A stretch of DNA of 60,681 bases from Patescibacteria group bacterium (GTDB lineage Bacteria; Patescibacteriota; Microgenomatia; UBA8517). The DNA lies in contig JALHYA010000004.1 in NCBI GenBank assembly GCA_022868165.1, forward strand, positions 149,432 to 210,112, given 5' to 3'. The notes beneath the pieces are model-generated. The model made no database searches, was not told the DNA's origin, and saw nothing but the letters and a program-made list of their open reading frames with translations. Below, piece by piece: positions 4,920-54,418 of this stretch. The translations under genes were made by a program, and so were the position numbers. Numbering within the stretch: the stretch's first letter is position 1; every line of letters begins with the position of its first letter.

Positions 4920-5838
4920 AAAAATTAAAAGTCTTCTCGTAATCTGCGGGCCGACCGCCACGGGTAAAACTTCTCTGGCTCTAAAACTGGTCCGGAAATT
5001 CAACGGCGAGATAATATCGGCAGATTCAAGACAGATATATAAGGGTTTTGACATAGGGACGGGTAAAGATTTGCCTCAGATACCGAAATCGGCAAAGGTA
5101 TGGGGCTATGATCTGGTTGGGTCAAAGGAGGAATTCAGTGTTTCAAAATATATAGCCTTCGCCCAAAAAGTACTGGCCGGTATTTGGTTAAAAGGAAAAT
5201 TACCAATTTTGGTTGGGGGAACGGGCCTTTATATTAAAGCTGTCGTAGACGGGATTCCGACGGCCTTTATCCCCAAAAACTTCGAGCTTAGGGAAAACCT
5301 GAAGGATAAAAGCACGGACGAGCTTTTTGAAAGTCTGGCTCAGCTCGACTCGGTGAGGGCAGCCTCAATGAATGCATCGGATAAAAAAAATCCCCGAAGG
5401 TTGGTTCGTGCGATAGAGATTGCCCAATGGAGGCTTTCCGGCGTTGAGCCGAAAAGAAAGGTTGTAAAGCCGGATTCCGTGCTTTTCATTGGTCTTAATG
5501 CTCCGCGCGAGAAGCTTTTTAAGGTTATAAGAGAAAGAGTCGAAAAACGTCTTAGGGAAGGCTTGGTAGGGGAAGTCAAGAATTTGCTCAAATCTGGAGT
5601 TTCTTGGGAGGACCAGGCGATGACCTCGCTGGGTTATAGGCAATGGAGAGGTTATTTTGAAGGAAAAGAAACCCTTCCCGAAGCCACTAAAAACTGGTTG
5701 CGCGAGGAGCAAAAATATGCCAAAAGACAGATGGCCTGGTTTAAAAGGGACAAAAGAATAACTTGGTTTGACATCACGGATAAGGCATTTGACGAAAAGG
5801 TGGAAAAATTGGTCAAAAGATGGTATAACATTCGGTAA
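4900..5838 (+). CDS. miaA: tRNA dimethylallyltransferase
   Basis: P-loop ICGPTATGKTSLAL, then SADSRQIYKGFDIGTGK and LVGGTGLY motifs. Confidence 0.9.
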   Translation: MPVLPAKKIKSLLVICGPTATGKTSLALKLVRKFNGEIISADSRQIYKGFDIGTGKDLPQIPKSAKVWGYDLVGSKEEFSVSKYIAFAQKVLAGIWLKGKLPILVGGTGLYIKAVVDGIPTAFIPKNFELRENLKDKSTDELFESLAQLDSVRAASMNASDKKNPRRLVRAIEIAQWRLSGVEPKRKVVKPDSVLFIGLNAPREKLFKVIRERVEKRLREGLVGEVKNLLKSGVSWEDQAMTSLGYRQWRGYFEGKETLPEATKNWLREEQKYAKRQMAWFKRDKRITWFDITDKAFDEKVEKLVKRWYNIR

Positions 5839-6833: not shown

Positions 6834-6860
6834 AAAAAACCCCTCCGTGCGGGGTTTTTT
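6834..6860. terminator. Rho-independent terminator (A-run / CCCC-loop-GGGG / T-run), potentially bidirectional
   Basis: aaaaaaCCCCtccgtgcGGGGtttttt, 7 nt after the transporter stop codon. Confidence 0.7.
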
Positions 6861-6908
6861 GTACTCTGGAGGCTAGTAGTCGCTTCGCTTCTAGCTCCCC
6901 TCCATCAC

Positions 6909-6935
6909 AAAAAATACCCGTTTTTCAACGGGTAC
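6909..6935 (-). terminator. Rho-independent terminator of RNase P RNA
   Basis: Minus strand reads TACCCG-ttgaaaaa-CGGGTA followed by TTTTTT, directly after the rnpB 3' end. Confidence 0.7.
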
Positions 6936-6941
6936 TTTTTG

Positions 6942-7237
6942 CTCTGGAGGCTAGTAAGCCAGGTTCTGTTATTAGACGATAATCTATCTTTGCCCTCAAA
7001 CCTTGGGGCTCGGGAAAGCTACCTCAAACGCCCCTTTCGGAGGTTGCAGCGGGGAGGATTGCCCCTTTTCACTCGTTTCCCTTGACCTTTAAAGTCTCGG
7101 GACCGACATAGTCTCTGTGGCTCTGTACTAGCGCTTGCGCGTACCGCCTTACGGCGGCCACCCTGCTTTCTGCTGCCTGGACTTTCCTCCCGCCTAAATA
7201 TGAAATTTTTGGCGGGTAATCGTCCTTCCTCCAGAGT
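6942..7237 (-). ncRNA. rnpB: RNase P RNA, bacterial type A-like, compact (about 296 nt)
   Basis: Minus strand has the universally conserved P4 strands GGAGGAAAGTCCAGGC (5') and AACAGAACCTGGCTTAC (3'). P1 is formed by CTCTGGAGG / CCTCCAGAG. Confidence 0.85.
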
Positions 7238-8639: not shown

Positions 8640-10172
8640 GTGCTTGCCAAAATCTCTTCGGGTGCAGCCGTTGGCCTTGATGCTACCCTGGTTGATGTTG
8701 AAGTTGATATCGCAGAGGCCGGTTTACCTTCATTTACCATAGTCGGGCTTCCCGATAAAGCGGTTGAAGAGTCGAAGGAAAGGGTGCGTTCGGCTATTAA
8801 AAACAGCGGTGCGGATTTCCCCATAAGTAGAATTACCGTGAATTTGGCTCCCGCCGATTTGCCAAAGGCTGGGCCTGCCTACGACCTGCCCATAGCCTTA
8901 GGGATATTAATAGCTTCGGGCCAGATTAGTCCGGATCTAGCCTTAAGTCTGTTTCTGGGCGAGCTTTCCTTGGATGGAAGCCTTAGGCACACAAATGCGA
9001 TTTTACCCATGGCCTTTTTGGCCAAAGAAAAGAGATTTAAAAAAGTTTTTGTGCCTAAAATTAACGAAAAAGAGGCCAGTGTAGTGTCCGGCATAGATGT
9101 TTATCCTGTCGAATCCCTGCTGGAGCTTGTGCGCTTCTTTGCCAAAACTTTGGAAATCGAGCCTGCCCCCAAAATAAAATTAACCTCATTGTTGGTCAAA
9201 AGCGAAGCTGAATTCGACTTTTCCGAAATAATCGGCCAGGAAGCTGCCAAAAGGGCAATGGAAATAGCAGCAGCAGGTGGACACAACATCTTTATGAAAG
9301 GAAGTCCGGGCTCGGGAAAAACCATGCTGGCCAGAGCTCTGCCCGGAATTCTGCCCACAATGACGGAGGATGAGGCTTTGGAGGTAACCAAAATCTACTC
9401 AATAACCGGAAATCTTCCGCAGGGAGAATCAATTGTTTCAGCCAGGCCTTTTAGAAGTCCCCATCATACAACCAGTAGAATTGGTCTTATTGGAGGAGGC
9501 TCGAATCCTTCTCCTGGGGAGATTTCTCTTGCTCACAGAGGAGTGCTTTTTTGCGATGAATTTCCCGAGTATCCCAGGAACGTCTTGGAATCTTTGCGCC
9601 AGCCAATGGAGGATGGGGTAATCACAATATCACGTGCCAAAGGCTCCGTAACCTATCCGGCGACCTTTATTCTCGTTGCAGCTTCGAATCCCTGCCCCTG
9701 CGGCTATTATGGCGACCCGAAGCGTGCCTGTACCTGTCTGCCGGGGCAGATTGCCAGGTATGAAAAAAGAGTTTCAGGGCCCATCCTGGACAGAATCGAT
9801 ATTCATATTGATGTGCCGTCGGTGGAAGCCCAGAAATTGGTAGGGAAGTCGGATGTTAAAAGCGAGGCTTCAAGATTAATCCAAAAAAGGGTGCAGAAGG
9901 CTAGGGAAGTACAGAATAAACGTTTTAAAAACACAAAGATAAAGTCAAACAGCGAAATGAATACAAAAGAGGTTAAAAAATTCTGCGAGCTTTCGGATGA
10001 GTGTCGTACAATGTTGACAAGTGCCGTTGCGACAATGAATTTAACAGCAAGGAGTTATTTCAAGGTAATTAAGATTGCCCGGACAATTGCGGATTTGGCT
10101 GGAGAAGCCAAAATAAGTACTCTCCATATCGCCGAGGCTCTCCAATATCGTCCCAAAGATATATTATATTAA
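8640..10172 (+). CDS. comM: YifB/ComM family Mg-chelatase-like ATPase
   Basis: GTG start giving MLAKISSGAAVGLDATLVDVEVDI as in homologues. Walker A GSPGSGKT. C-terminal MCM/ChlI-like region. Confidence 0.9.
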   Translation: MLAKISSGAAVGLDATLVDVEVDIAEAGLPSFTIVGLPDKAVEESKERVRSAIKNSGADFPISRITVNLAPADLPKAGPAYDLPIALGILIASGQISPDLALSLFLGELSLDGSLRHTNAILPMAFLAKEKRFKKVFVPKINEKEASVVSGIDVYPVESLLELVRFFAKTLEIEPAPKIKLTSLLVKSEAEFDFSEIIGQEAAKRAMEIAAAGGHNIFMKGSPGSGKTMLARALPGILPTMTEDEALEVTKIYSITGNLPQGESIVSARPFRSPHHTTSRIGLIGGGSNPSPGEISLAHRGVLFCDEFPEYPRNVLESLRQPMEDGVITISRAKGSVTYPATFILVAASNPCPCGYYGDPKRACTCLPGQIARYEKRVSGPILDRIDIHIDVPSVEAQKLVGKSDVKSEASRLIQKRVQKAREVQNKRFKNTKIKSNSEMNTKEVKKFCELSDECRTMLTSAVATMNLTARSYFKVIKIARTIADLAGEAKISTLHIAEALQYRPKDILY

Positions 10173-15676: not shown

Positions 15677-17036
15677 TTTCCTTTAGTCTTTCTAAGAGAG
15701 CTTCTTTTGTATTATCGAGTTTTTTCTCGACAACTTCTTCGAATAGTTTATTTAGTATTTCGCCTACCCTAGGTCCTGAGCCAAGTCGAAGGACTTTCAT
15801 TACATCATTCCCGTCGATTTTAAGGTCGCGGACACTAAACGGCTCTTTTTGAACTTCAATCAAGCGTTTTTTAAATTCTTCGAGTCTCCATGAGGTTTCT
15901 GCTGCTCCTCCGCCAAGCCTGTCTGCAACTCTCAAGGCCAGCATATCTTCAAGATTTTCCTTACTGACGTTTCTAATGAATCGGCGAATTGCCGAATCGG
16001 TTTGCCTCTCGTCGACGGTAAATTGATGCCAGCGGACGAGAGTAATAAGTCTTTCTCTTTCTTTGTTCGGAAACTTAAGCCGGTCGGAAATGTTTTCCGC
16101 AATTTTTGTTGAAATTACCTCGTGGTTGTAAAAAGTGATGGTTCCGTTTGTCAGTTTTTTGTAGGTTGCCGGCTTTCCGATGTCGTGAATTAGTGTTGCG
16201 AACCGGACCAAAGGGTCGGGGGATTTACAATTTTTTAGCGATATCAATAAATGTTCTCCAACATCATAAATATGATGCCTGCCCGGAGATTTTTGCTCGA
16301 CTCCAAAAGCCTTTTCCATTTCCGGAAGTATTTCTGCCATCAACCCAGAATTTTTGAAAACAAGAACTCCATCGTAAGGGTGCGGGGACTTAAGAAGCTT
16401 AAAGAGCTCCTCTTTGACTCTTTCTTTGGCAATTCGATTTATTAAAGCGGCATTTTTCTTTATTGCTTCGAGAGTTTTTTCTTCGATGGTAAATCCCAAT
16501 TCTGCCGCAATCCTTATTGCCCTCATCATTCGCAAAGCATCTTCGGAAAACCGCTCGTCCGGATTTCCGACCGCCCTGATAATTTTTCTTTTTAAATCCT
16601 TCTGACCTTCGTAATAATCAATCAACTCACTTTTTGCAGTCAGGGCCATAGCATTTATGGTGAAATCTCTTCGGGCCACGTCGTCTTTAAGTGTTTTACC
16701 CCATTCAATTTTGTCGGGGCGACGCGAGTCCGAATATCCAAATTCCTTTCTGAATGTTGTTATCTCATAAGGATTCGGGGATGACGGGTGTGATATCCCT
16801 ACGGTGCCGAAAGTGTTGTCATAAAACCCTTCGGGGAAAACCTTAAGAATCTGTTCGGGCGTTGCATTTGTGGTGAAATCCCAATCGTAAACTTCCTTGC
16901 CCATTAGGATGTCGCGGACAGCACCGCCGACAATATATGCCTCAAAATCGGCACCTTCGAGTTTTTTTAGAATATCCAAAACATAGTCTGGAAGATGGAC
17001 CAGCATTGCGATACCATTATACTTCAAGAAAGTCAC
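15663..17036 (-). CDS. cca: CCA-adding tRNA nucleotidyltransferase with HD domain
   Basis: YIVGGAVRDILMG head-domain motif, RDFTINA, HD motif LIHDIGK. The start could also be the internal ATG at 17006. Confidence 0.85.
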   Translation of the reverse strand: MTFLKYNGIAMLVHLPDYVLDILKKLEGADFEAYIVGGAVRDILMGKEVYDWDFTTNATPEQILKVFPEGFYDNTFGTVGISHPSSPNPYEITTFRKEFGYSDSRRPDKIEWGKTLKDDVARRDFTINAMALTAKSELIDYYEGQKDLKRKIIRAVGNPDERFSEDALRMMRAIRIAAELGFTIEEKTLEAIKKNAALINRIAKERVKEELFKLLKSPHPYDGVLVFKNSGLMAEILPEMEKAFGVEQKSPGRHHIYDVGEHLLISLKNCKSPDPLVRFATLIHDIGKPATYKKLTNGTITFYNHEVISTKIAENISDRLKFPNKERERLITLVRWHQFTVDERQTDSAIRRFIRNVSKENLEDMLALRVADRLGGGAAETSWRLEEFKKRLIEVQKEPFSVRDLKIDGNDVMKVLRLGSGPRVGEILNKLFEEVVEKKLDNTKEALLERLKEISAS

Positions 17037-26581: not shown

Positions 26582-26652
26582 TGGGAGATCGTCTAATGGT
26601 AGGACACGTCCCTCTGGAGGATGTAATCTAGGTTCGAATCCTAGTCTCCCAG
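26582..26652 (+). tRNA. tRNA-Gln (anticodon CUG)
   Basis: A 71-nt cloverleaf folded by hand. U1-A72 and G73 as in bacterial tRNA-Gln. Anticodon loop CUCUGGA. T-loop GGTTCGAATCC. CCA not encoded. Confidence 0.9.
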
Positions 26653-26666
26653 CACAATTTTAATGC

Positions 26667-27320
26667 ATGAATAAATCTACTACTTCAGACAATAATTTGG
26701 TCGAAATACAAAAAGTTAATCGTGCCACATACGATAATCTTGCCAATGAGTATGAGCAAAGAAACAAAACACTTAAAAATGTGACTGAGTATGCTTTATC
26801 ACTGTTTATAAAACACCTAAGTTCGGGGAAAGAAATTTTGGAAACTGGGTGTGCAGTTGGTTTAGCAATAAACATAATGGAGAGAAAAGGACTCAATGTA
26901 ACTGGAATTGATATTTCACCAAAGATGGTTAAATATGCAAAGAAAAGAAATCCTAAAAGCGATATTGTTTTAGGAGACTTTTTAACATATAAATTTGGTA
27001 AAAAATATGACGGCATTTTCTCGTTTGCATTCATTCATCTTTTTCCTAAAAATATTGCGTTAAAGATCCTAAAGAAAATGTATGAACTTCTTAAATCCGG
27101 AGGCGTGCTTTATTTAGGAACCAGCAGATCTAAACAAAGTTATGAATCTTGGGAAGTGAAAAAGGACTATCAGAATAAAAAGAGACGCTTCAGAAAACAT
27201 TGGACCCAGAAAGAGCTCGAAAACGCGCTTATTGAAACAGGTTTCAAAAAATTAGATTTATATATTATCGAGGATCCATTCAAAAAAGTATGGATGGATT
27301 TTGTAGTCCAGAAACCGTAG
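26667..27320 (+). CDS. Class I SAM-dependent methyltransferase
   Basis: Motif I ILETGCAVGLAI, followed by VTGIDISPKMV. Confidence 0.85.
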   Translation: MNKSTTSDNNLVEIQKVNRATYDNLANEYEQRNKTLKNVTEYALSLFIKHLSSGKEILETGCAVGLAINIMERKGLNVTGIDISPKMVKYAKKRNPKSDIVLGDFLTYKFGKKYDGIFSFAFIHLFPKNIALKILKKMYELLKSGGVLYLGTSRSKQSYESWEVKKDYQNKKRRFRKHWTQKELENALIETGFKKLDLYIIEDPFKKVWMDFVVQKP

Positions 27321-27327
27321 TATTTAT

Positions 27328-27437
27328 GGGCTCGAATGGTTCGAGACCCTACTGCTCAGCTCGGAGCAAGCAAAGCTTGCGGAGATCCTGAGTGAGCGAA
27401 GTGAATCGAAGGGCAAGTATATGCACCCCTAGTGACC
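27328..27437. repeat. Mosaic intergenic repeat, B-type copy 1 (with extra internal module)
   Basis: 38-nt core tgctcagctcggagcaagcaaagcttgcggagatcctg at 27353-27390 is identical to 28856-28893. The flanks ggctcg..gg(t)tc.agacc and cacccc(t)agtgac are also shared. Confidence 0.85.
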
Positions 27438-27492
27438 ATGATGCCTCAAAAAGCCCGAAATTTACCACTTAATGATATAATAACGGCCAATT

Positions 27493-28146
27493 ATGTCAGT
27501 TGAGTCTAATAAATCTCAGGAACCAACCTCAACTTTAAAACAAGTAGTAGAAGCCTACGGACGTGATCGATGTAACCCCGAGCTTCTAACCCAATTTATG
27601 TATGCTTTTTGGGCAGAAGCAGGCCAAAGAATTGGGAAAGAGTATGTTGTTTCTGAATTTCCCTTGAAATCTCAAGAGATTAAGGAGAGGATAAAAAACG
27701 GCCAAATGGCTATTTTTGTTCCAGCAGAAGTAAGTAGGATTGATTTAGGAAAAATGTTTCCTAAAATGGGAGGCTGGGTGGTTCAAGAAGAAAATTCAGT
27801 TGTTGACGGAGTCAATAATTTCGGTTGGCTTTGGATTGAGGATTCAGTTGATTCTCCAAATAGAAATACTACCCAAAGACAATTGGAAAAGAAATTCAAG
27901 AAAGAAAAAAGACAAGGACAATCATTAAGAAGTTATATTGTCGGAAGCCAAATTAATAAATTGTTAAATGATAAATATTTTGATGGAGGACAAATCTGGT
28001 CAAGGCTGCTGGGTTCTTGTCGTGGAGATGGGGTTCTTATCTCCGGCTTCGGTTCCCGTGGCGACCTGTCTGTCCATTCGTTTCTGTATCCTGAGGATCG
28101 CGATGAGTTCGTAGGTGGTCGTTCCGAGGAAGTGGTTAAACCTTAA
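27493..28146 (+). CDS. Hypothetical protein (217 aa), orphan
   Basis: Long ORF bracketed by repeat-bearing spacers. No motif recognised. Confidence 0.55.
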   Translation: MSVESNKSQEPTSTLKQVVEAYGRDRCNPELLTQFMYAFWAEAGQRIGKEYVVSEFPLKSQEIKERIKNGQMAIFVPAEVSRIDLGKMFPKMGGWVVQEENSVVDGVNNFGWLWIEDSVDSPNRNTTQRQLEKKFKKEKRQGQSLRSYIVGSQINKLLNDKYFDGGQIWSRLLGSCRGDGVLISGFGSRGDLSVHSFLYPEDRDEFVGGRSEEVVKP

Positions 28147-28195
28147 TTTTTGGAGTTTTTGTTCTTTTTAACCCTTTGAACTTTTTATACTGTCT

Positions 28196-28219
28196 CATTT
28201 AGCCTGGGTGTGAGACAAT
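28196..28219. repeat. Mosaic intergenic repeat, C-type copy 1
   Basis: catttagcctgggtgtgagacaat matches 33505-33528 with one mismatch. Confidence 0.8.
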
Positions 28220-28263
28220 CAGTTATAAGCGAAGCTTGAAACATTTTGTGTTATAAGGGTTGA

Positions 28264-28311
28264 AAGGTTCTAGACCGGCCATTCGATAAGCTTATGGCCT
28301 TCGGCCCGCTC
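28264..28311. repeat. Mosaic intergenic repeat, A-type copy 1
   Basis: aaggttctagaccGGCCATtcgataagcttATGGCCttcggcccgctc. Same architecture at 29812 and 34955. Confidence 0.85.
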
Positions 28312-28364
28312 AGCAATTACTCAGTGATAGAAATTTTACTCCACCTCGTTATATACTTTTAGGA

Positions 28365-28769
28365 ATGAAACAGTCAATTGTTTATGTAGCTTTGGTAGTT
28401 CGAGAGTACGACGAAGCAATTGAATTTTATACAAAAAAACTTCACTTTACCCTGATTGAAGATACATATCAGCCAGAACAAGATAAACGCTGGGTAGTCG
28501 TTGCCCCACCAGGTTCATCGGAAACAAAATTGCTTCTTGCAAGAGCTTCTAAACCTAAACAAAAATCGTTCATAGGTAATCAAACTGGTGGGCGAGTATT
28601 TCTTTTTCTCAACAGCGATGACTTCTGGAGAGACTACAATGAGATGGTTTCATTGGGTATAAAATTTGTAAGAAAGCCAAAAGTTGAATCATACGGTACG
28701 GTAGCAGTTTTTGAAGATTTATATGGAAATCTATGGGATTTAGTAGAGTTGAAAAAGAAGGAGAAATAG
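28365..28769 (+). CDS. VOC family protein (glyoxalase/bleomycin-resistance fold)
   Basis: 134 aa. Pattern YVALVVREYDEAIEFYTKKL ... FEDLYGNLWDL is typical of the VOC family. Confidence 0.85.
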   Translation: MKQSIVYVALVVREYDEAIEFYTKKLHFTLIEDTYQPEQDKRWVVVAPPGSSETKLLLARASKPKQKSFIGNQTGGRVFLFLNSDDFWRDYNEMVSLGIKFVRKPKVESYGTVAVFEDLYGNLWDLVELKKKEK

Positions 28770-28830
28770 AAATTTACTATAAATTGTTAAAGAAGCTGGG
28801 TTATAAATAAAAATCACCCTAACCAATTAT

Positions 28831-28905
28831 AGGCTCGTAAGGTCCTAGACCGACATGCTCAGCTCGGAGCAAGCAAAGCTTGCGGAGATCCTGCACCCCA
28901 GTGAC
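28831..28905. repeat. Mosaic intergenic repeat, B-type copy 2
   Basis: Contains the ggtcctagacc anchor plus the identical 38-nt core (28856-28893). Confidence 0.85.
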
Positions 28906-28967
28906 AGATTGTTAATTAATTTAATTTATTTGATTTGTAAGCTACAACCAATATATTATTAATTAGA

Positions 28968-29795
28968 GTGAATATTAAAAAGATATTGTTGTTGGTGTTA
29001 TTTTTCTTCTCTATTAGTTTTCTTATTCCAAAAACTTCAAAAGCAGTTGATTTACGGGAGGTGTTTACTTCAGAGGACTCGATTGTGGTAAAAATACAGG
29101 AGGGAATTGAATATTTCTTTGCCTTCAGGGTTGAAAATAAAGTAGCGGTGTTGGAAAAACAGGCTGAAAAAAGGTTGGTCATGGCACAAACTTATGCGGA
29201 TGAGGGTAATAATGAGAGGGTGCAAAATCTTTTGCAAAATTACCTTCAAATAAAAGAAAGACAGAATAATTTATTGGAAAAAACAAATAACAGTGAAGTT
29301 TTGGGGGCTGTTGAAGAAAGAACAATAGAACAGCAAAAAATGATGGAGGTAATAAAAACAAGGATAGATGAAGGCACAAAACAGAATGTTATTCAGGTTC
29401 AGGAACAAGTAGTAAATCAGGTAGCGAAACGAGTGATTGATGTAAATGGATCGGAAGGGGCAACTGGATTTTTAAATGAGGTTGTGCATGTCTGGGCACC
29501 CGGAACGGGGCCAGGAGGAGGGGAAGCGGGAGTAGTATATGCTGGTGGTGGAAAGTTAATATATGCCCCCGGAACAGGGACCGGAGGACAGGGTGGAATT
29601 GTAATCGAGGGCGGAGAAATGAAGTTTGCGCCGGGAACCTCTGAGGGTGGATCCAGCGGGGCCAATGTTCAGAATACGGTAATTGAAGGCGGGGGAAGCG
29701 GAGGTGGAGGAGGAACAACGATGGAGGGTGGAAATCAAAATATAGCTCCGGGCACTTCTTCTGGTGGTGAAGGAACGACAGTTGTTGGAGAGTAA
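28968..29795 (+). CDS. Secreted protein, DUF5667-like N-terminal domain plus Gly-rich APGT(G/S)xGG repeats
   Basis: GTG start, signal/TM segment, helical region EKQAEKRLVMAQTYADEGN, C-terminal four-fold APGTG / APGTS repeats. Confidence 0.65.
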   Translation: MNIKKILLLVLFFFSISFLIPKTSKAVDLREVFTSEDSIVVKIQEGIEYFFAFRVENKVAVLEKQAEKRLVMAQTYADEGNNERVQNLLQNYLQIKERQNNLLEKTNNSEVLGAVEERTIEQQKMMEVIKTRIDEGTKQNVIQVQEQVVNQVAKRVIDVNGSEGATGFLNEVVHVWAPGTGPGGGEAGVVYAGGGKLIYAPGTGTGGQGGIVIEGGEMKFAPGTSEGGSSGANVQNTVIEGGGSGGGGGTTMEGGNQNIAPGTSSGGEGTTVVGE

Positions 29796-29811
29796 GCGTT
29801 ATTGGGATAAA

Positions 29812-29875
29812 AAGGTCCTAGGCCGGCCATTCGACAAGCTCATGGCCTCCGGCCCGCTTCTTCGACTTCGCTCAG
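29812..29875. repeat. Mosaic intergenic repeat, A-type copy 2 fused to D-type copy 1
   Basis: A unit at 29812-29858. cttcgacttcgctcag at 29860-29875 is identical to 33482-33497. Confidence 0.85.
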
Positions 29876-29915
29876 AACTATAGTCAGCCAAGACGGGCAA
29901 GAAGGGTATATACTT

Positions 29916-31061
29916 TTGATGCAAATGAAATACTGGTCGATGGTGTTACACTTTTACCAGCCTCCAACACAGGAACTTCAAATAACCGAGACTGTCTTGA
30001 AATCAAGCTATCTACCACTTCTCAGAATCCTTTCGGAAAAGTCTGGATTCGGGTTGACGCTTAATATCGGTGGAGGTTTGATTTTACAGCTCAAAAAGCT
30101 TGGTGTAAATGAATTTTTTGATCTAGTAAAAAAACTTATTAGCGATGGGAAAATCGAAATCGTTAATAGTGTGATGTACCACCCTCTGATACCCATTATT
30201 CCAAAAGACGTTGTAGTTAGACAGATCAAAAAAAACAGTCAGACCTTGAAAAGTTTGTTGGGGGTAGAAACCACAAACGGTTTTTTTCCTCCCGAATTGG
30301 CAATAGACAATGAAAGCCTCAATTTAATAGACAGCAATTACATATTCATAGATGAAAGTTCACTGGAAACTCGCCTCGTTGCTAAGCGGGCAAAAGATTC
30401 AATAACTAAATATGGCGAAAAATATTTGTTAATAAATAACCGCGAGGTTTGCAACCTCTTACGGGCATACCCCAAAGAACTTCCTGCAAAAACTGTAATT
30501 GATTTGGTGCAGAAAAATTGCGATGAAGACGGTCTGATCGTGACGGCAAACGACGCAGAACTGTTTGGCCATCATTATTCGGAAAGACTGCAGGTGCTTT
30601 CCGATTTACTGAACGAACGGGAAATCAAATTTATCAAAGCTTCCGAGGCTGTAGTCAAGTTTGGTAGCCAAGCACTTGTAGTTTCTAAAGTTTTGCCATC
30701 CACCTGGCAGGACTGTAAGGGTTTCAGTCTATGGAGTAAAAATGCTTTGCAAAAGAAATATTTAGAACTATTAAAGATAATTTACGAGTTGACCTTGGGC
30801 GACTTGAGTACAACAACTCAGGATCTATTTGACCAGGGAAGTTCATCTTGTTATTTGTACTGGTTGTCGAATTGGCCGTGGTGGCATCCTGATTTGGTAC
30901 GGAAAGGTGCCGAGAACTTGATCAAATGTACAAAAAACGCCGAGGCTGAAGCGGTTTATCGCGATTTTTTGGATAAAATGTGGGAATATCACCGGTCGGG
31001 TAAAGTAGAAATTAAATATAAAGAGTACGATGAGAAGTTGTTAGCAACAAGAAGTAAATAA
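29916..31061 (+). CDS. Glycoside hydrolase family 57 protein
   Basis: LHFYQPPTQ N-terminal motif, FFPPELAID, and ANDAELFGHH (GH57 catalytic region pattern). The start may be the ATG at 29919 or 29925. Confidence 0.75.
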   Translation: MMQMKYWSMVLHFYQPPTQELQITETVLKSSYLPLLRILSEKSGFGLTLNIGGGLILQLKKLGVNEFFDLVKKLISDGKIEIVNSVMYHPLIPIIPKDVVVRQIKKNSQTLKSLLGVETTNGFFPPELAIDNESLNLIDSNYIFIDESSLETRLVAKRAKDSITKYGEKYLLINNREVCNLLRAYPKELPAKTVIDLVQKNCDEDGLIVTANDAELFGHHYSERLQVLSDLLNEREIKFIKASEAVVKFGSQALVVSKVLPSTWQDCKGFSLWSKNALQKKYLELLKIIYELTLGDLSTTTQDLFDQGSSSCYLYWLSNWPWWHPDLVRKGAENLIKCTKNAEAEAVYRDFLDKMWEYHRSGKVEIKYKEYDEKLLATRSK

Positions 31062-31062
31062 T

Positions 31063-31842
31063 ATGTACAAAGTTGCCGTTATCACCCCCTGCTATAATAG
31101 GGCCCAATTCATATCCGAATGCATTCAGTCAGTATCCCTTTCCAACACGTTTGGTATTTGTGAAATAGAACATATTATCATTGATGACGCTTCAACCGAT
31201 AATACATGGAACATTATACGTCAATCAAAAGTTCCAAACCTTACAGTCTTTAGACTAACTGAAAATAAGGGACCTGCCTTTGCACGAAATTATGCGATCA
31301 ATCAATGTGATGCTGATTTTATTTTTTGTCTTGATTCTGATGACGTGCTATTTCAAAATAGCCTATATTCTCTTCTAACCTTTGCACTCGAGAAAAAAGC
31401 AGACTGGGTGTACGGAGACATTATCCGAGGTGATAACCAGTTACGTTATCAAATAGGAAAAGACTTTTTTGGATGGAATTTTAAAACAATTGAAGATGTT
31501 CTAACTGCCATGTTTAAAAATGAGCATTTCTTTCAACACAGCAGTTTATTTTCTAAGACCGCTTTTGATAAAGCAGGTCGATATGATGATTCGCTACACC
31601 TTGCAGAAGACTTTGATCTCTTCACCCGCATGCTCCTGCGTGGATACTTTCCCTATTACTTGTCGGCACCACTCTATATCTATCGCGTCCATGATAATAA
31701 TCTTTCTAAGCCATATTTTATAAACTTAAAGAAACATAAAGAAGATATTCGCGAGTTATACGCAAAATATAAAGATGAATTTCAAGCTATACTTTCTAAA
31801 GATTCAATTGTCGCCATTGAACAGGCTCATTCAACATGGTGA
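31063..31842 (+). CDS. Glycosyltransferase family 2
   Basis: VITPCYNRAQFI ... IIIDDASTDNT ... DSDD motifs. Confidence 0.85.
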   Translation: MYKVAVITPCYNRAQFISECIQSVSLSNTFGICEIEHIIIDDASTDNTWNIIRQSKVPNLTVFRLTENKGPAFARNYAINQCDADFIFCLDSDDVLFQNSLYSLLTFALEKKADWVYGDIIRGDNQLRYQIGKDFFGWNFKTIEDVLTAMFKNEHFFQHSSLFSKTAFDKAGRYDDSLHLAEDFDLFTRMLLRGYFPYYLSAPLYIYRVHDNNLSKPYFINLKKHKEDIRELYAKYKDEFQAILSKDSIVAIEQAHSTW

Positions 31843-31856
31843 GGATTTAGATTAAG

Positions 31857-33443
31857 TTAGGAATATAGTGGTCTGTCTGTGGACGTGTTCGGAGATAGAT
31901 TGTTGGTGTGTAGTTCCTGTGCTTTTTGATACAGGTCAATATATTTTTGGGCAGACTTTCTCCAGGAGAAATCGGCCACCATTGCCCGCCTAATCATCTT
32001 TTTCCATGATGGAAGATTTTTATAAGTTTCAATTGCACGAACTACCGCAGTAAGTAACCCTTCAGGAACAAAGCTTTTGAACGTAAAACCATAACCAGTA
32101 CCTGACTTCGGATCATAATCAATAACAGAATCGGCCAATCCACCTGTTGCATGGGCTATCGGAATACAACCGTAACGCAAAGCTTCTATAGCAATTATGC
32201 CGCCAGGTTCGTATTTACTCGGAATTAAAATCATGTCAGACCCGGCAAGGACCTTCCTTGGCAGAGAGAAGTCACGTATGAGATGGGTTCCAACCTGACC
32301 CGGGTATTTTTTCTCCATTTTGGAAAAAAATTCTACAAAGTTTTGTTCACCTGAACCCGCAATGATAAACTGAACTCCCAAGTCTTGCACAATATACTCA
32401 AATTCCTTAACAAGGAGGTCTAACCCTTTTTGCAAATCTAATCGCCCAACATAACAAATAAGAGGCACCTCAGGGTCATTTTTTAAATTGAATCTTTTTT
32501 GCAAATCGAGTTTATTTGCGGTTCTAAGATTTAACGAATTTGAAGAGAATTTTTGTTTAATCATCTCATCTGCCGTTGGATTAAAATCAGTGGTGTCGAG
32601 ACCATTTAAAACACCATATAATTTTCCTCTTAATTCACGGAATAGATTTTCCAATCCACCGCCATACTCGGCATTTAGAAGTTCCTGGACATAAGTTTGT
32701 GAAACCGTATTGACAATATCTGCGTACATAACGCCGCGTTTTAAGGAATTTTGTTTGATGAGTTTGTCCGAAAAAATAGGCGCCAATTGGCTTTTGCCAT
32801 CATCGAAGTCCATCTCGTTAGCGTTCGCGAAATCAAACGTGCCTTGATATATATTGTGAATTGATAAAAGGGTGGAAATTTTTTTCAAAGTAGGATCCTT
32901 TTTATAATTGTCATCATTTTTTAAGAAATCAATTAAATATCCTGTGTGCCAATCATTCGCATGAATAAGGTCGGGTATAAAATCTCCCGTTTTAATAAAT
33001 TCCAAGGCAGCTTTGGAGAGAAGGCTGAAACGGATGTGGTCATCGTTATAGTTGTAGACATTGGCTCTTTTTTGGTAATACTCTTCATTGACCAGGAAAT
33101 AAACCGGAGCATCGCCTTTTGTCGGTTGGTAAAGCTCTACCGCACAATCAATATTAGTACCCTCTCCAGTTGGTATTTTTAAACTTGAAATAATTGTCTT
33201 GGTTGGGTATTTGCTAGGATCAACAAGACCATATTTTGGAGTGAATATTCTGACATCGACCCCCAGTTTCTTAAGCGAACGGGTCAAAAAGTGGGCAACC
33301 TGAGATAATCCGCCTACAGAAGAAAACGGTGCGACTTCGGCACAAACAAATAATACCTTCAATTTTTTTGACAACACTCTCCGTATTATACATCTTTTGA
33401 GCGTATAAACAGTGCTTTTGAGATATTCCCTTTTTACAAACAT
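31857..33443 (-). CDS. glgA: Glycogen/starch synthase (GT5)
   Basis: KVLFVCAEVAPFSSVGGLSQV N-terminal motif. C-terminal GT-B motifs PSKYEPGGIIAIEALRYG. The start is uncertain (33443 ATG or 33362 TTG). The track start at 33527 lies inside repeat modules. Confidence 0.85.
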   Translation of the reverse strand: MFVKREYLKSTVYTLKRCIIRRVLSKKLKVLFVCAEVAPFSSVGGLSQVAHFLTRSLKKLGVDVRIFTPKYGLVDPSKYPTKTIISSLKIPTGEGTNIDCAVELYQPTKGDAPVYFLVNEEYYQKRANVYNYNDDHIRFSLLSKAALEFIKTGDFIPDLIHANDWHTGYLIDFLKNDDNYKKDPTLKKISTLLSIHNIYQGTFDFANANEMDFDDGKSQLAPIFSDKLIKQNSLKRGVMYADIVNTVSQTYVQELLNAEYGGGLENLFRELRGKLYGVLNGLDTTDFNPTADEMIKQKFSSNSLNLRTANKLDLQKRFNLKNDPEVPLICYVGRLDLQKGLDLLVKEFEYIVQDLGVQFIIAGSGEQNFVEFFSKMEKKYPGQVGTHLIRDFSLPRKVLAGSDMILIPSKYEPGGIIAIEALRYGCIPIAHATGGLADSVIDYDPKSGTGYGFTFKSFVPEGLLTAVVRAIETYKNLPSWKKMIRRAMVADFSWRKSAQKYIDLYQKAQELHTNNLSPNTSTDRPLYS

Positions 33444-33481
33444 AGTTTGCAAGCTCTGCTTATAGTGTCTTATTTGTCTTA

Positions 33482-33528
33482 CTTCGACTTCGCTCAGTAC
33501 TTCGCATTTAGCCTTGGTGTGAGACAAT
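33482..33528. repeat. Mosaic intergenic repeat, D-type copy 2 plus C-type copy 2
   Basis: cttcgacttcgctcag (33482-33497) and catttagccttggtgtgagacaat (33505-33528). Confidence 0.8.
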
Positions 33529-33817
33529 GGTTACAAGATTTATAAGGAGTATGCCTTACTTTGTCTACATTCTCCGTACCTCTTCAAACACTCTTTATAT
33601 CGGCCAAACAAACAACCTTGAAAGGCGGCTTCTGGAACACAAAAAGAAAAGCGGAAAATCAGCAAAATATATTCGCTATTTTTCTTCTTTTACCCTGGTT
33701 TATTCCGAAAAATATCAAACCAGAAAAGAAGCAATGAGTAGGGAAATTCAATTAAAAAGTTGGAGTAAAGCGAAGAAAGAAGCTTTGATTAAATCTAGAC
33801 CGGCCCGCTCTGTTTAA
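33527..33817 (+). CDS. GIY-YIG nuclease family protein (UPF0213-like)
   Basis: YFVYILRTSSNTLYIGQTNNLERRLLEHKKK (GIY...YIG...R...E). The start could be 33551. The last codons run into a repeat fragment. Confidence 0.8.
   Translation: MVTRFIRSMPYFVYILRTSSNTLYIGQTNNLERRLLEHKKKSGKSAKYIRYFSSFTLVYSEKYQTRKEAMSREIQLKSWSKAKKEALIKSRPARSV
33794..33810. repeat. Short form of the A-type repeat (anchor and tail without the hairpin core)
   Basis: tctagaccggcccgctc equals the A unit minus ccattcga...ttcgg. Confidence 0.6.
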
Positions 33818-34832
33818 AAATCTTAGTTATTTCGTCTTTGGCTGAAAAATCCAGATCTTCAATCTTTCCCGCAGTCACTATTTTAAGCCCCTGATTTTTC
33901 TCCTTAATCTCTCCTATGGTGGTAGCTAAAATCTTGTGTTTTCCTAAGACCGAAGTGATCGAATCTACGCTTTCTGGAGGTGCAATGATTAATAAGGCTC
34001 CCGAAGCTATTGTTTTTAACGGATCTAAACCATATTCTCCGCAAAGGATGCTTGATTCTTCTAGAATTGGAATTTTTTCTTTGTCAACCAGCAAACCAAC
34101 CCGCGAGGCCTGGGCTACTTCATAAAGTCCGGCGGAGAGTCCTCCCTCTGTCGGATCGTGCATTGCATGAACTTCAAACTGGTTTGCCAAAAGTGCATCT
34201 CTAACTACTGAAAGGCCGGGTTTATGAAGAAAGTTTTGACATTTTCGGATAAACTCTTCGCTGTATCCTCTCTGTCTTAATTCTTCCCGTTTTTCTCTAG
34301 CAATAATCGTTGTGCCTTCGACAGCTACCCCTTTTGTTAAGATAATTGCGTCTCCGGGTTTAGCGCCCGAGGTTGAAACCAATTTTTCCCTAGCTACCTC
34401 GCCCAACATCGTACCAACAACAATTGGTCTGTCCAAATTGTAGGTAACTTCGGTATGTCCTCCAACCACTGATACGCCCAGTGTTTTGGCAGCTTCGGAA
34501 ATTTGAGCAAAAATCCTTTCAGCTTCTTCCTCGGTAGTTTTTCCTTCTGGAAGAAGTATGGTTGCTTGAAACCATTTTGGAACAGCGCCAGTTGTAGCGA
34601 TATCATTAGCATTAACCTGAACTGCATACCAGCCGATTTCTTCTGTCGCAAACGTGATGGGGTCGGTTTTTACTACGAGATAGCGGTCGGGAAAATCAAT
34701 TACCGCCGCGTCCTCGCCTAATTTTGGCCCCAGCACTACCCGAGGATCAAGTATGGTCTCATATTTTTTAAGTAGTCTTGACAAAATAGGAAAATCCAAT
34801 TTCCCGAGAGGTAAAATTTTTTTCGTCTTCAC
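33795..34832 (-). CDS. AIR synthase-related protein (PurM/ThiL/HypE superfamily)
   Basis: GEDAAVIDF ... VVKTDPITF ... NDIATTGAVP N-domain pattern and a PurM-like C-domain. Confidence 0.75.
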   Translation of the reverse strand: MKTKKILPLGKLDFPILSRLLKKYETILDPRVVLGPKLGEDAAVIDFPDRYLVVKTDPITFATEEIGWYAVQVNANDIATTGAVPKWFQATILLPEGKTTEEEAERIFAQISEAAKTLGVSVVGGHTEVTYNLDRPIVVGTMLGEVAREKLVSTSGAKPGDAIILTKGVAVEGTTIIAREKREELRQRGYSEEFIRKCQNFLHKPGLSVVRDALLANQFEVHAMHDPTEGGLSAGLYEVAQASRVGLLVDKEKIPILEESSILCGEYGLDPLKTIASGALLIIAPPESVDSITSVLGKHKILATTIGEIKEKNQGLKIVTAGKIEDLDFSAKDEITKIFKQSGPV

Positions 34833-34954
34833 TCTTTCTCCTTCAAGAGCAATAGCTTAGCAAGTTAAATAGCTAATAATCAAGCTAAAGAGCCTCTTAA
34901 TACACTCCGACTTTGATATAATTGGCTGATCTTGAAGATCCATCCGTAAACAGA

Positions 34955-35002
34955 AAGGTCCTAGACCGGCCATTCGACTGGTTCATGGCCTTCGGCCCGC
35001 TC
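34955..35002. repeat. Mosaic intergenic repeat, A-type copy 3
   Basis: aaggtcctagaccGGCCATtcgactggttcATGGCCttcggcccgctc. Confidence 0.85.
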
Positions 35003-35021
35003 GGCAAGATGAGGTAAAAAT

Positions 35022-35465
35022 TTGAAAATGAAAAAACAATCATCAGTTATAATATTTATTGACTGTGAAGGAAACTTACTTCTTCAAGAAAGGGGCAGTT
35101 ATTCTAAGGGGGGAGAGAAACACGGTTATTTTGGAGGTAATATTAAAAAAGGAGAAAAACCAAAAGATGCCTTAATAAGGGAATTAAAAGAAGAATTAAA
35201 CTATGTCCCTAAAAAAATTAAATTCTGGAAAAAGGTTAGCTTTTTATGCACCGCAGAAGGAAAATATAATAATTTTAAGGTTACTGTCTATATTTTTGTT
35301 AGTCCTTTGACCAAAAGAGTGGAGAAAGCTAAGGTATACGAGGGTGAAGGGTTAATAAAGACCACTCTCGACGAGGAATTAGAAAGCGAAAATTTTACAG
35401 GAGGATACGAAATCATACTCAAAGAGATTAAAAACCACTTTGCTGAAGTGTTGGAGTTGCTTTAG
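35022..35465 (+). CDS. NUDIX hydrolase
   Basis: Nudix box GGNIKKGEKPKDALIRELKEELNY. TTG at 35022 or ATG at 35028. Confidence 0.8.
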   Translation: MKMKKQSSVIIFIDCEGNLLLQERGSYSKGGEKHGYFGGNIKKGEKPKDALIRELKEELNYVPKKIKFWKKVSFLCTAEGKYNNFKVTVYIFVSPLTKRVEKAKVYEGEGLIKTTLDEELESENFTGGYEIILKEIKNHFAEVLELL

Positions 35466-35513
35466 GATAATTGATAAGGACTGAAATGTTCTAGACTGTC
35501 CCGCCCAGCTGGA

Positions 35514-35854: not shown

Positions 35855-35882
35855 TAGGATTGTCTAAAGTCTGGCCGGCCAG

Positions 35883-36683
35883 CTAGTGGTATTTGCCTCT
35901 CTCGTCGTGGCACTGGTTTTTCTTATCCCAGCAGACATTTTGGCAGGTTGGATCATCGGGGTAGACATCGGGACAACCGCTTCTTTTTGGATCAAAAAAG
36001 GGTAAACAAACTCCGCTCGGCGGAGCGCATACGTATTGCAGGGGTGCTGGCGGAGGAGCGGCAGTTGGCGTTGGTACTCCCGGCTCTTCGGTAGGAGAAG
36101 TAGGGCTTGGTGTTGGGGTAAACGTAGGAGTGGGTAATCCTCCTTGACCGGTGGGAGTTGGAGTAGGAGTAGGCAGCGGAGGTGGAGTTGAGCCTTCTGC
36201 AACACAGTAATTGTTTAAATTTTTATTTGTGCTTGCGACTCCATAGTTGAATTTACAATCCGGGCCGCAGCCGTTCCGCCGACAATCAACGCGGTCAATT
36301 ATTGTGTCGGCAGTAAATTCCAAATCTGCGTAGAGCTGATACCATTTGCTGCAGGCGCCGCCTTCGTTGACATAAACATATGAGCTTTTGGGTTTCGGGT
36401 CGCAAGGAATATTAGCAAGAACATTTAAATCGTCAATTTTCAATGGATTGCCGCAAACGGGAATGGCAACAGGATAGCAGCCTTTATCCTGGTAATACTC
36501 CTCGATACCTTTTGAGATTCTAAGAAGGTCTGCTTTTCTTCTTGCATCCCTTGCTCTTTGGAATTGGGGTGCTGCAGAGACGTAAGTTGTGCCCGAAACT
36601 ATTCCTAAAATTGCGGTAACGATGAGGATTTCAACTAAAGTGAATGAACGTAGGGGCCAGATTTTTCTTTGGCGTTTAGTCAC
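35883..36683 (-). CDS. Type IV pilin-like protein, Cys-rich with Pro/Thr-rich linker
   Basis: Prepilin-type N-terminus RSFTLVEILIVTAILGIV (Glu at +5), about 14 Cys, PT-rich segment PTPTPTPTGQGGLPTPTFTPTPSPT. Confidence 0.75.
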   Translation of the reverse strand: MTKRQRKIWPLRSFTLVEILIVTAILGIVSGTTYVSAAPQFQRARDARRKADLLRISKGIEEYYQDKGCYPVAIPVCGNPLKIDDLNVLANIPCDPKPKSSYVYVNEGGACSKWYQLYADLEFTADTIIDRVDCRRNGCGPDCKFNYGVASTNKNLNNYCVAEGSTPPPLPTPTPTPTGQGGLPTPTFTPTPSPTSPTEEPGVPTPTAAPPPAPLQYVCAPPSGVCLPFFDPKRSGCPDVYPDDPTCQNVCWDKKNQCHDERGKYH

Positions 36684-54352: not shown

Positions 54353-54418
54353 AAACGTTGACATCCTGAGTGAAATCGAATGGATGGAAGAAATGTCACT
54401 ATCCCCAATTAGGTTAGA

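Follow-up and report, generated by a model that had tools for sequence, protein, structure and literature searches.

Repeat modules in a Microgenomates gene island as putative junctions of a cassette array at tRNA-Gln

What are the short, hairpin-forming repeats that fill the spacers of a small gene island in a Patescibacteria genome? We addressed this question for a stretch of 60,681 nucleotides, hereafter the window (GenBank assembly GCA_022868165.1, contig JALHYA010000004.1, positions 149,432 to 210,112 of the forward strand), which is low in GC (~42%) and has its homologs in Microgenomates, members of the candidate phyla radiation (CPR). CPR bacteria have tiny genomes, and their gain and exchange of accessory genes is little understood. 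The island starts directly 3' of a tRNA-Gln gene (26582-26653) and encodes, in this order, a methyltransferase, a hypothetical protein, a glyoxalase, a DUF5667 protein, GH57, GT2, glycogen synthase (minus strand), a GIY-YIG nuclease, an AIR-synthase-like protein (AIRS; minus strand) and a NUDIX hydrolase. An earlier note on this DNA had described four recurrent modules, A to D, in its spacers and had offered three options for them: elements resembling miniature inverted-repeat transposable elements (MITEs), recombination sites, or small structured RNAs. We favour, with about even confidence, a reading in which tRNA-Gln anchors an array of gene cassettes and the modules form the junctions of this array; the ~23-nt anchor GGTCCTAGACCGnCnnGCTCAGC would be attachment-site-like, and small palindromic elements, here called E hairpins, would invade it.

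Anatomy of the modules and the sister genome

All four modules were found at the positions first given for them. The three copies of module A (28262-28316, 29811-29858 and 34953-35007) share pairwise identities of 87-90%, with an invariant GGCCAT/ATGGCC stem and a different 11-nt loop in each. The core of module B is identical at 38/38 positions between 27353-27390 (B1) and 28856-28893 (B2), and 87% identical over 67 nt when the flanks are included; the additional segment of B1 relative to B2 is real and comprises 32 nt. Module C (28193-28219 vs 33502-33528) is 93% identical between its copies, and module D (29860-29875 vs 33482-33497) 16/16.

Among spacers of at least 40 nt, all six in the island contain modules compared to 1/19 in the rest of the window (Fisher P = 4e-5). 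The modules are therefore no generic terminators or promoters. A terminator and promoter scan detected neither a promoter nor a GC-rich hairpin with T-tract at the modules, the counts matching the shuffled expectation. The island encodes no Y1 transposase of the kind that accompanies repetitive extragenic palindromes (REPs). Confinement of the family to the island holds nearly, one solo hairpin lying outside it at 54363-54385. The right-hand limit first set at 35002 is too narrow, as anchors follow at 35487-35509 and, in degenerate form, at 35869-35883.

The modules can be broken down into few components. The anchor in its long form is an 89-nt unit, U (TTTTTATACTGTCTCATTTGTCTCAtTTAGCCTtGatgTGAGACAATcAGTTATAAGGAtaGAAAGGTCCTAGACCGaCCTGCTCAGC), the 5' half of which is module C and the 3' half the ggtcctagacc anchor of the earlier note. 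E hairpins are palindromic mini-elements of 14-60 nt with TTCGAC…GCTCA boxes between short covarying stems. Their general pattern is TTCGAY…YRCTCA between short complementary flanks, in the L orientation or, as the reverse complement, in the R orientation. Module A is an anchor with an E insert (GGCCA-TTCGAC..GCTCA-TGGCC), D is a minimal E, and B consists of an anchor, a related hairpin and the sequence of a former tRNA-downstream flank, while the additional segment of B1 is an R-type E unit. In the 5' half of unit U (window 28190-28222; 9823-9870 of the related locus L018), the heptamer TGTCTCA is present in three copies, two of them direct and one inverted (TGTCTCAttTGTCTCA…TGAGACA). These repeats show no compensatory changes and thus look more like a candidate protein-binding site than like an RNA hairpin.

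The clearest information on the modules comes from a sister genome, two contigs of which (L083/L084) were reached via the closest GIY-YIG homolog (P0002, 89%). Both flanks of the island are conserved, the left one, including tRNA-Gln, at 87% and the right one at 95% from ~35849 onwards. Between them, the cargo differs: the methyltransferase, the hypothetical protein, the glyoxalase, GH57, GT2, glycogen synthase and NUDIX genes are specific to the window, the sister genome carries ArsP/ArsR genes, a GT1 gene and several small open reading frames (ORFs), and only the GIY-YIG, AIRS and DUF5667 genes are common to the window and L084. The DUF5667 block, homologous to 9451-10294 of L084, has also changed position, being located ahead of the GIY-YIG gene in the window and past the AIRS gene in L084. 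The homology blocks end at anchors (window positions 34971 and 29828). These block ends, with different or reordered cassettes between them, support the recombination-site option for the ggtcctagacc anchor.

The same comparison revealed empty and filled sites within the anchors. L084 has the uninterrupted anchor GTCCTAGACCGACCCGCTCAGC at the site of A3, so that A3 contains a clean 26-nt insertion (ATTCGACTGGTTCATGGCCTTCGGCC). At the site of A2 and D, where L084 has GGTCTTCGACCGGCCCGCTCAGC, the window carries one insertion of 26 nt and another of 14 nt in nested arrangement. The converse applies to the anchor at the 3' end of the GIY-YIG gene (33794-33812), which is empty in the window and contains a nested double E in L084. 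For the hairpin part of the modules, the MITE-like option was thus supported, and insertion polymorphism, a check proposed with it, was observed in both directions. Finally, the B1 anchor matches the tRNA-Gln 3' end of the sister genome at 17/23 positions, and in L084 the tRNA-Gln CCA is followed by a sequence identical to the B1 tail GTATATGCACCCCTAGTGACC. This tail, module F, therefore represents a former tRNA-downstream flank, and both matches together imply that the tRNA end was the insertion site of the methyltransferase cassette along with its anchor. The features of the window are as follows.

26582-26653, plus strand: tRNA-Gln(CTG), fixed left end of the array, with cassette 1 beginning immediately 3' (ARAGORN, Rfam, conserved synteny)
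26667-27320, plus strand: cassette 1, S-adenosylmethionine (SAM)-dependent methyltransferase (Pfam); not present in sister genome L084 (gene list, blastn)
27338-27360, plus strand: B1 anchor GGTTCGAGACCCTACTGCTCAGC, 18 nt past the methyltransferase stop codon; nhmmer unit U match at 27323-27360
27361-27412, plus strand: B1 hairpin region, the remainder of the 38-nt B core and an R-type E hairpin CCTGAGTGAGCGAAGTGAATCGAAGG (27387-27412); similar to the stretch immediately upstream of GIY-YIG genes at other loci, e.g. L007
27417-27437, plus strand: F module GTATATGCACCCCTAGTGACC, the B1 tail; same sequence directly 3' of the tRNA-Gln CCA in the sister genome
27493-28146, plus strand: cassette 2, hypothetical protein of 217 aa; no Pfam match
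28183-28229, plus strand: module C1, 5' half of unit U, with TATACT box and GTCTCA…TGAGAC inverted repeat (nhmmer)
28266-28314, plus strand: module A1, comprising the anchor 5' part (28266-28280), a 26-nt E insertion (28281-28306) and the tail CGCTCAGC (28307-28314)
28365-28769, plus strand: cassette 3, glyoxalase-family protein (Pfam)
28841-28905, plus strand: module B2, comprising the anchor (28841-28863), the B hairpin (28864-28892) and the F module GCACCCCAGTGAC (28893-28905)
28913-29828, plus strand: DUF5667 cassette, comprising its upstream region, the ORF (28968-29795) and the first part of its anchor
29814-29875, plus strand: modules A2 and D, comprising the anchor 5' part (29814-29828), a 26-nt E (29829-29854), CGCT, a 14-nt minimal E (29859-29872) and CAG
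29916-33360: cargo genes GH57 (plus), GT2 (plus) and glycogen synthase (minus; start approximate, ~33360)
33460-33547, plus strand: unit U 5' half upstream of the GIY-YIG gene, including D (33482-33497) and C2 (33505-33528)
33551-33817, plus strand: UPF0213-type GIY-YIG nuclease, 88 aa, with AGGAG ahead of the start codon
33794-33812, plus strand: uninterrupted (empty) anchor TCTAGACCGGCCCGCTCTG within the GIY-YIG 3' end
33795-34832, minus strand: AIR-synthase-related gene (Pfam), a cassette common to L084 at 95% DNA identity
34957-35005, plus strand: module A3, comprising the anchor 5' part (34957-34971), a 26-nt E (34972-34997) and the tail CGCTCGGC (34998-35005)
35022-35465, plus strand: NUDIX hydrolase cassette gene (Pfam); L084 has a different 137-aa ORF here
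35487-35509, plus strand: further anchor TGTTCTAGACTGTCCCGCCCAGC right after the NUDIX stop codon; nhmmer match at 35453-35509
35869-35883, plus strand: degenerate terminal anchor GTCTGGCCGGCCAGC, adjoining the conserved right flank
54363-54385, plus strand: solo R-type E hairpin ATCCTGAGTGAAATCGAATGGAT in the spacer 3' of the SecA gene, the only family member found outside the island

Arrays behind tRNA-Gln in related genomes

The links of the modules to tRNA-Gln, to the GIY-YIG gene and to a family found throughout Microgenomates go beyond the earlier note. They were followed in 80 genomic loci fetched via the GIY-YIG gene. Unit U had 48 nhmmer matches in the related loci, 47 of them on the GIY-YIG strand. 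Anchors are located a median of 33 nt past the upstream stop codon and a median of 94 nt ahead of the next start codon, and the units mostly share the orientation of the flanking genes (upstream gene, 33 same vs 11 opposite; downstream gene, 35 vs 8). In our reading, each cassette would combine an upstream region with one to three genes and with an anchor that closes it just past the stop codon.

The tRNA-Gln gene is a recurrent neighbour of these arrays. GIY-YIG ORFs were located 10-360 nt downstream of tRNA-Gln in 28 of 92 cases, and GIY-YIG genes at most 450 nt downstream in 26 of 88. The gene order consisting of homologs of window 20-26 kb, tRNA-Gln and GIY-YIG is widespread, the window having 6.9 kb of extra genes between the last two. 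Co-oriented unit arrays with blocks of one to three genes between the units follow tRNA-Gln in L002, L008, L031, L032 and L044, and the hot spot recurs in named Microgenomates lineages (Woese-, Davies-, Levy-, Collier-, Gottesman- and Beckwithbacteria). One further locus, L082, was found independently via the DNA pattern of module A and is the only one added from Joint Genome Institute (JGI) metagenomes; here, anchors lie on opposite strands either side of tRNA-Gln (L082:1-3500), and the arrays run outward in both directions.

Anchors and tRNA ends occupy equivalent positions. The motif TTCGAY follows within 10 nt at 18/56 tRNA-Gln ends and 8/38 anchors, compared to 0/79 other tRNAs and 0.7% of random positions, and the first E hairpin often begins exactly at the last bases of tRNA-Gln (L016, L019, L058 and L064). 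In L065, which is 93% identical to L039, a block of 1.16 kb starts at the tRNA and ends in an anchor adjoining the very flank that follows tRNA-Gln in L039. L014 and L079 differ by a 1.35-kb block that lies at the 3' end of tRNA-Glu and ends in a U unit, and have unrelated genes between tRNA-Gln and GIY-YIG. Insertions at a tRNA 3' end were seen for tRNA-Gln in the window, L065, L082 and L084, and for tRNA-Glu in L014. L065 additionally contains, at 5261-5678, a tRNA-Gln 5' fragment (positions 1-25) broken by a perfect-looking 73-nt palindrome and followed by a second, divergent GIY-YIG gene (MFYTYVLKSKKDGKLYIGWS…) and a complete tRNA-Gln; L039 has a plain tRNA-Gln only.

The cargo next to the units is heterogeneous and includes TIR, NUDIX, Fic, GNAT, HD, MerR, TspO and cation-efflux proteins. 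In L008, L031 and other arrays, two cassette proteins have a CAP12/Pycsar-effector TIR domain and one has a Fic/DOC domain; judged by these domains, the arrays may carry defence or toxin cargo.

According to the reading we favour, the anchor resembles the tRNA-Gln 3' end and would be able to replace it, and both the tRNA-Gln 3' end and anchors already in place would serve as entry points for cassettes. The array would thereby gain, lose and reshuffle members, leaving relatives with different cargo between identical flanks. We infer that the cassettes probably move by site-specific recombination at the DNA level at anchor and tRNA-end sites, by analogy with integrons or tandem accretion; the enzyme would be encoded outside the cassettes. 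Integron arrays likewise consist of mostly co-oriented cassettes of one or few genes with a conserved site just past the stop codon, and their diverse cargo also varies between close relatives and changes its position in the array. In contrast to integrons, there is no adjacent IntI, attI or Pc here, neither the anchor nor unit U is palindromic in the manner of an attC-type imperfect palindrome (R''-L''/L'-R' boxes), the array has its fixed end at the tRNA-Gln 3' end, and it occurs in a CPR bacterium.

Insertion exactly at tRNA 3' ends, usually tRNA-Gln and once tRNA-Glu (L014), is also what integrase-mediated accretion would produce. The anchors would then be att sites of small integrase-less elements resembling cis-mobilizable elements (CIMEs), served in trans by a tyrosine or serine recombinase from elsewhere in the genome or from a phage, with the GIY-YIG gene as selfish cargo and the E hairpins as unrelated REP-like elements. 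As in known tRNA-targeting elements and CIMEs, the units stand in tandem as direct repeats and a distal repeat occupies the position of the tRNA end; its resemblance to the tRNA 3' end is seen for B1 (17/23) but is not significant across the family. One large serine recombinase is encoded among the array neighbours, and the array of L082 does without GIY-YIG within 11 kb. We nevertheless consider this explanation unlikely. At least eight units of just 0.6-3.5 kb stand in one array without an integrase remnant, and the anchor is not copied from the tRNA end of its host but belongs to a family conserved across genera. The tRNA-Gln end of the window itself (TCCTAGTCTCCCAGC) lacks the anchor core. 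A phage origin of the anchor was rejected, the anchor pattern having no match in viral contigs.

A second explanation dispenses with a dedicated recombinase. The modules could be passive scars, i.e. decayed tRNA-Gln ends and GIY-YIG upstream regions, shuffled by RecA-dependent allelic replacement after DNA uptake in which the repeats would merely provide short homologous patches, and the presence or absence of E hairpins could reflect gene conversion or slippage between anchors with no active element involved. The modules are indeed mosaics of fragments, C and D are found ahead of the GIY-YIG gene, the R-type arm of B1 stops where a GIY-YIG start would be expected, no recombinase lies nearby, and the differences between L065 and L039 and between the window and L084 can be drawn as replacements between homologous flanks; the L082 array would fit as well. 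Lengths of ~23 nt, however, are at or under the usual minimum for efficient RecA recombination, and despite this length of the anchors each of five independent comparisons placed the breakpoints precisely at the ends of anchors. Moreover, A3 is 96% identical to its copy in L082 while the coding genes of the two genomes are only ~70% identical, the B core is fully conserved, the stems covary, and 47/48 units share one orientation. This conservation exceeds that expected of neutral scars, and we regard passive scars as rather unlikely.

The E hairpins

In 1.2 Mb of related loci, regular expressions matched 58 L arms, 72 R arms and 24 anchors, compared to 7, 2 and 0 in shuffled sequence, and ~75% of the motif matches were located at most 250 nt upstream of a GIY-YIG ORF. 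The earlier note had taken the invariant stem and variable loop of module A as a sign of selection on structure. Three copies with an invariant stem are insufficient for this conclusion, and their predicted folding was no better than that of shuffled sequence (z = -1.95, -0.6 and 0.03). Across the family, however, the stem does covary: the flanks of 198 distinct candidates form 442 Watson-Crick pairs, whereas permutations gave 298.8 ± 14.1, and the pairs at a given position are of several types. The hairpin of module A is thus supported by covariation within the family and not by the three copies in the window. The outer helix formed by s1-TTCGAC and GTCGAA-s1' covaries as well (36/56 vs 22.2 ± 2.8). 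A cognate hairpin of left and right arms was considered and rejected, as the duplex energy was -29.7 kcal/mol for cognate and -32.3 kcal/mol for non-cognate arms and only the outer helix covaries.

Where E hairpins interrupt anchors, they do so at a single position in 8/8 cases (…CCGGCC^CGCTC…), with GGCC repeated after the insert. This 4-nt repeat, a candidate target-site duplication, is present at all eight inserts, yet GGCC is also complementary to the element's own stem, and E stems measure 3-6 bp. Nested copies were found among the related loci. We propose that E hairpins would insert at the fixed anchor position or directly past the end of tRNA-Gln or an anchor, and would nest in one another. 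With their empty and filled sites at orthologous anchors, they are a clean case of a very small mobile or convertible element.

These properties are reminiscent of REPs and bacterial interspersed mosaic elements (BIMEs) with their RAYT proteins and of MITEs such as Correia elements and Rickettsia palindromic elements (RPEs), which likewise are short palindromes outside genes that combine conserved boxes with covarying stems. Insertion polymorphism, nesting and copies in both orientations beside a single nuclease gene are shared as well. The E hairpins differ in that the associated gene encodes a UPF0213 GIY-YIG protein and not an HUH/Y1 or DDE enzyme, in their length of 14-60 nt and in their specific target in the anchor or tRNA-Gln end; furthermore, REP/RAYT copies are dispersed by the hundreds over intergenic regions genome-wide, whereas the family occupies 1/19 non-island spacers as counted in 60 kb of genome. 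Each system to which the locus can be likened, integrons and tandem accretion for the architecture and REPs, MITEs and RPEs for the hairpins, lacks a defining feature here, namely IntI and attC, an integrase, or an HUH or DDE transposase, respectively.

The covarying stems might instead act in RNA. As transcribed leaders, small RNAs, processing sites or unconventional terminators, the units would be expected to be co-oriented with flanking genes, as the counts of 33 to 11 and 35 to 8 given above show; a TATACT box stands at the head of the long unit, and the stem beside tRNA-Gln takes in the last bases of the tRNA. Under this explanation, the tRNA-like end might be cut by RNase P or RNase Z. 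Several results argue against this explanation, which we regard as very improbable. Rfam searches at the gathering threshold and at E <= 10 matched tRNA and RNase P only and none of the modules, and RNAalifold returned 0 pairs, i.e. no consensus fold, for 11 full-length U units, on which grounds unit U was rejected as a structured RNA and the small structured RNA option was not upheld. Terminator- and promoter-like sites are not enriched and no T-tract is present, the A copies fold no better than shuffled sequence, 18/19 spacers outside the island lack units, and the units coincide with indel boundaries between genomes. In addition, a TATAAT-like box precedes the ATG of many downstream genes by 6-12 nt, and transcription may therefore start downstream of the hairpins. 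The view of unit U as a degenerate tRNA-Gln was likewise rejected: local alignment scores equalled those of shuffled sequence, and the Rfam tRNA model gave no match.

The box itself, TATAAT or TATATA, precedes array genes in the window (28350-28360 and 29907-29917), in L014/L079 (~9985) and in L065 (~9985), and TATATACTTTT precedes the glyoxalase and GH57 genes. Its short distance from the start codon suggests that these genes may be transcribed as leaderless or very-short-leader mRNAs.

The GIY-YIG gene and minor observations

The sole recurrent partner of the repeats is the UPF0213 GIY-YIG gene, and no transposase was found in the island or among the listed array-neighbour families. The window gene (33551-33817) encodes a single-domain protein of 88 aa that matches Pfam PF01541 (E = 3e-18) and the PDB entries 1ZG2 (E = 7e-11) and 1YWL (1e-8), both named UPF0213. 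An exact-protein look-up with the window sequence gave no match. Approximately 1950 homologs were found, and the best 120 listed share 74-89% identity with the window protein. At most 300 nt upstream, 41/88 GIY-YIG genes have an L-type E hairpin; E hairpins are located upstream of the gene and do not flank it on both sides. In the window, the last 23 nt of the GIY-YIG ORF (33795-33817) are shared with the 3' end of the convergent AIRS-like ORF, and the empty anchor lies inside this overlap, a single stretch thus serving as two protein C-termini and as a repeat.

Tentatively, and with considerable doubt, we propose that this small nuclease, a frequent resident of the arrays, is the enzyme that nicks or mobilises the hairpins. 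It shares the GIY-YIG catalytic domain with homing endonucleases (T4 Seg, I-TevI) and with the genes of CPR rRNA insertions, and like these its genes are multi-copy, variably present and intergenic, beside or inside stable-RNA genes. It differs from them as a bare catalytic domain of ~88 aa of the UPF0213/YhbQ type, which lacks a DNA-binding domain. GIY-YIG genes of CPR bacteria have been reported in non-intron insertions within rRNA genes (PMC11270868), a report compatible with mobility of these genes.

A number of observations weigh against the reading that we favour and against a role of the nuclease in it. The association with GIY-YIG is biased by design, as the loci were fetched through that gene. 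Only 6/88 GIY-YIG genes have an anchor just downstream, and L082 has five anchors beside tRNA-Gln and no GIY-YIG gene within 11 kb. The similarity of the anchor to tRNA-Gln is not significant across the family (P = 0.12). No recombinase was identified in a Pfam scan of all island ORFs; among 48 array-neighbour ORFs, there was the one large serine recombinase only, and Phage_integrase was not among the 25 of 45 Pfam families listed for the array neighbours. Lastly, presence or absence of E at a fixed anchor position could stem from gene conversion between anchors instead of transposition.

In its strongest form, the proposal would amount to integrase-free cassette capture in Microgenomates, in which GIY-YIG cuts or nicks anchors and hairpins and single-gene cassettes are inserted, shuffled and exchanged at the tRNA-Gln 3' end. 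We consider this improbable; if true, it would represent a new class of cassette or integration machinery and provide a first function for the widespread UPF0213/YhbQ family. To our knowledge, no function has been assigned to UPF0213 GIY-YIG proteins, and their partnership with the arrays offers a concrete hypothesis for one. In full-text literature searches, we found neither this repeat family nor cassette arrays linked to tRNA-Gln in CPR bacteria described. The locus is a compact hot spot of cassettes behind tRNA-Gln with a conserved bounding site and with cargo (NUDIX, glyoxalase, methyltransferase, TIR, Fic, GNAT) that varies among relatives. Should this site be an active recombination target, the hot spot would be an integron-like adaptive locus built from different parts, which would account for assembly breaks and provide a handle on gene flow in CPR bacteria.

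Such breaks were seen in Logan contigs of SRR19116065 (L001, L087 and L088), which derive from the same strain and added no polymorphism: L001 spans precisely the stretch between B1 and B2, and B1 is where L088 stops. Since these assemblies break at the repeats, the family fragments short-read assemblies of these genomes. Many contigs with the Microgenomates-type GIY-YIG gene and its repeats (L003, L012, L018, L023 and others) are filed in public metagenome-assembled genomes as 'Gammaproteobacteria', 'Rikenellaceae' or 'Saccharibacteria' and are probably mis-binned or mislabelled CPR contigs.

Outside the island, the 25 of 70 Pfam families listed for the rest of the window include housekeeping genes. 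An E-like sequence at 15773-15796, inside the ORF of the CCA-adding enzyme, was considered as an in-frame insertion and rejected; it aligns to a homolog without a gap and is therefore a chance match. Furthermore, the RNase P RNA gene (6939-7235, minus strand) overlaps at its 3' end with a 27-nt direct repeat, the two copies of which (6852-6878 and 6930-6956) are 85% identical and lie 78 nt apart.

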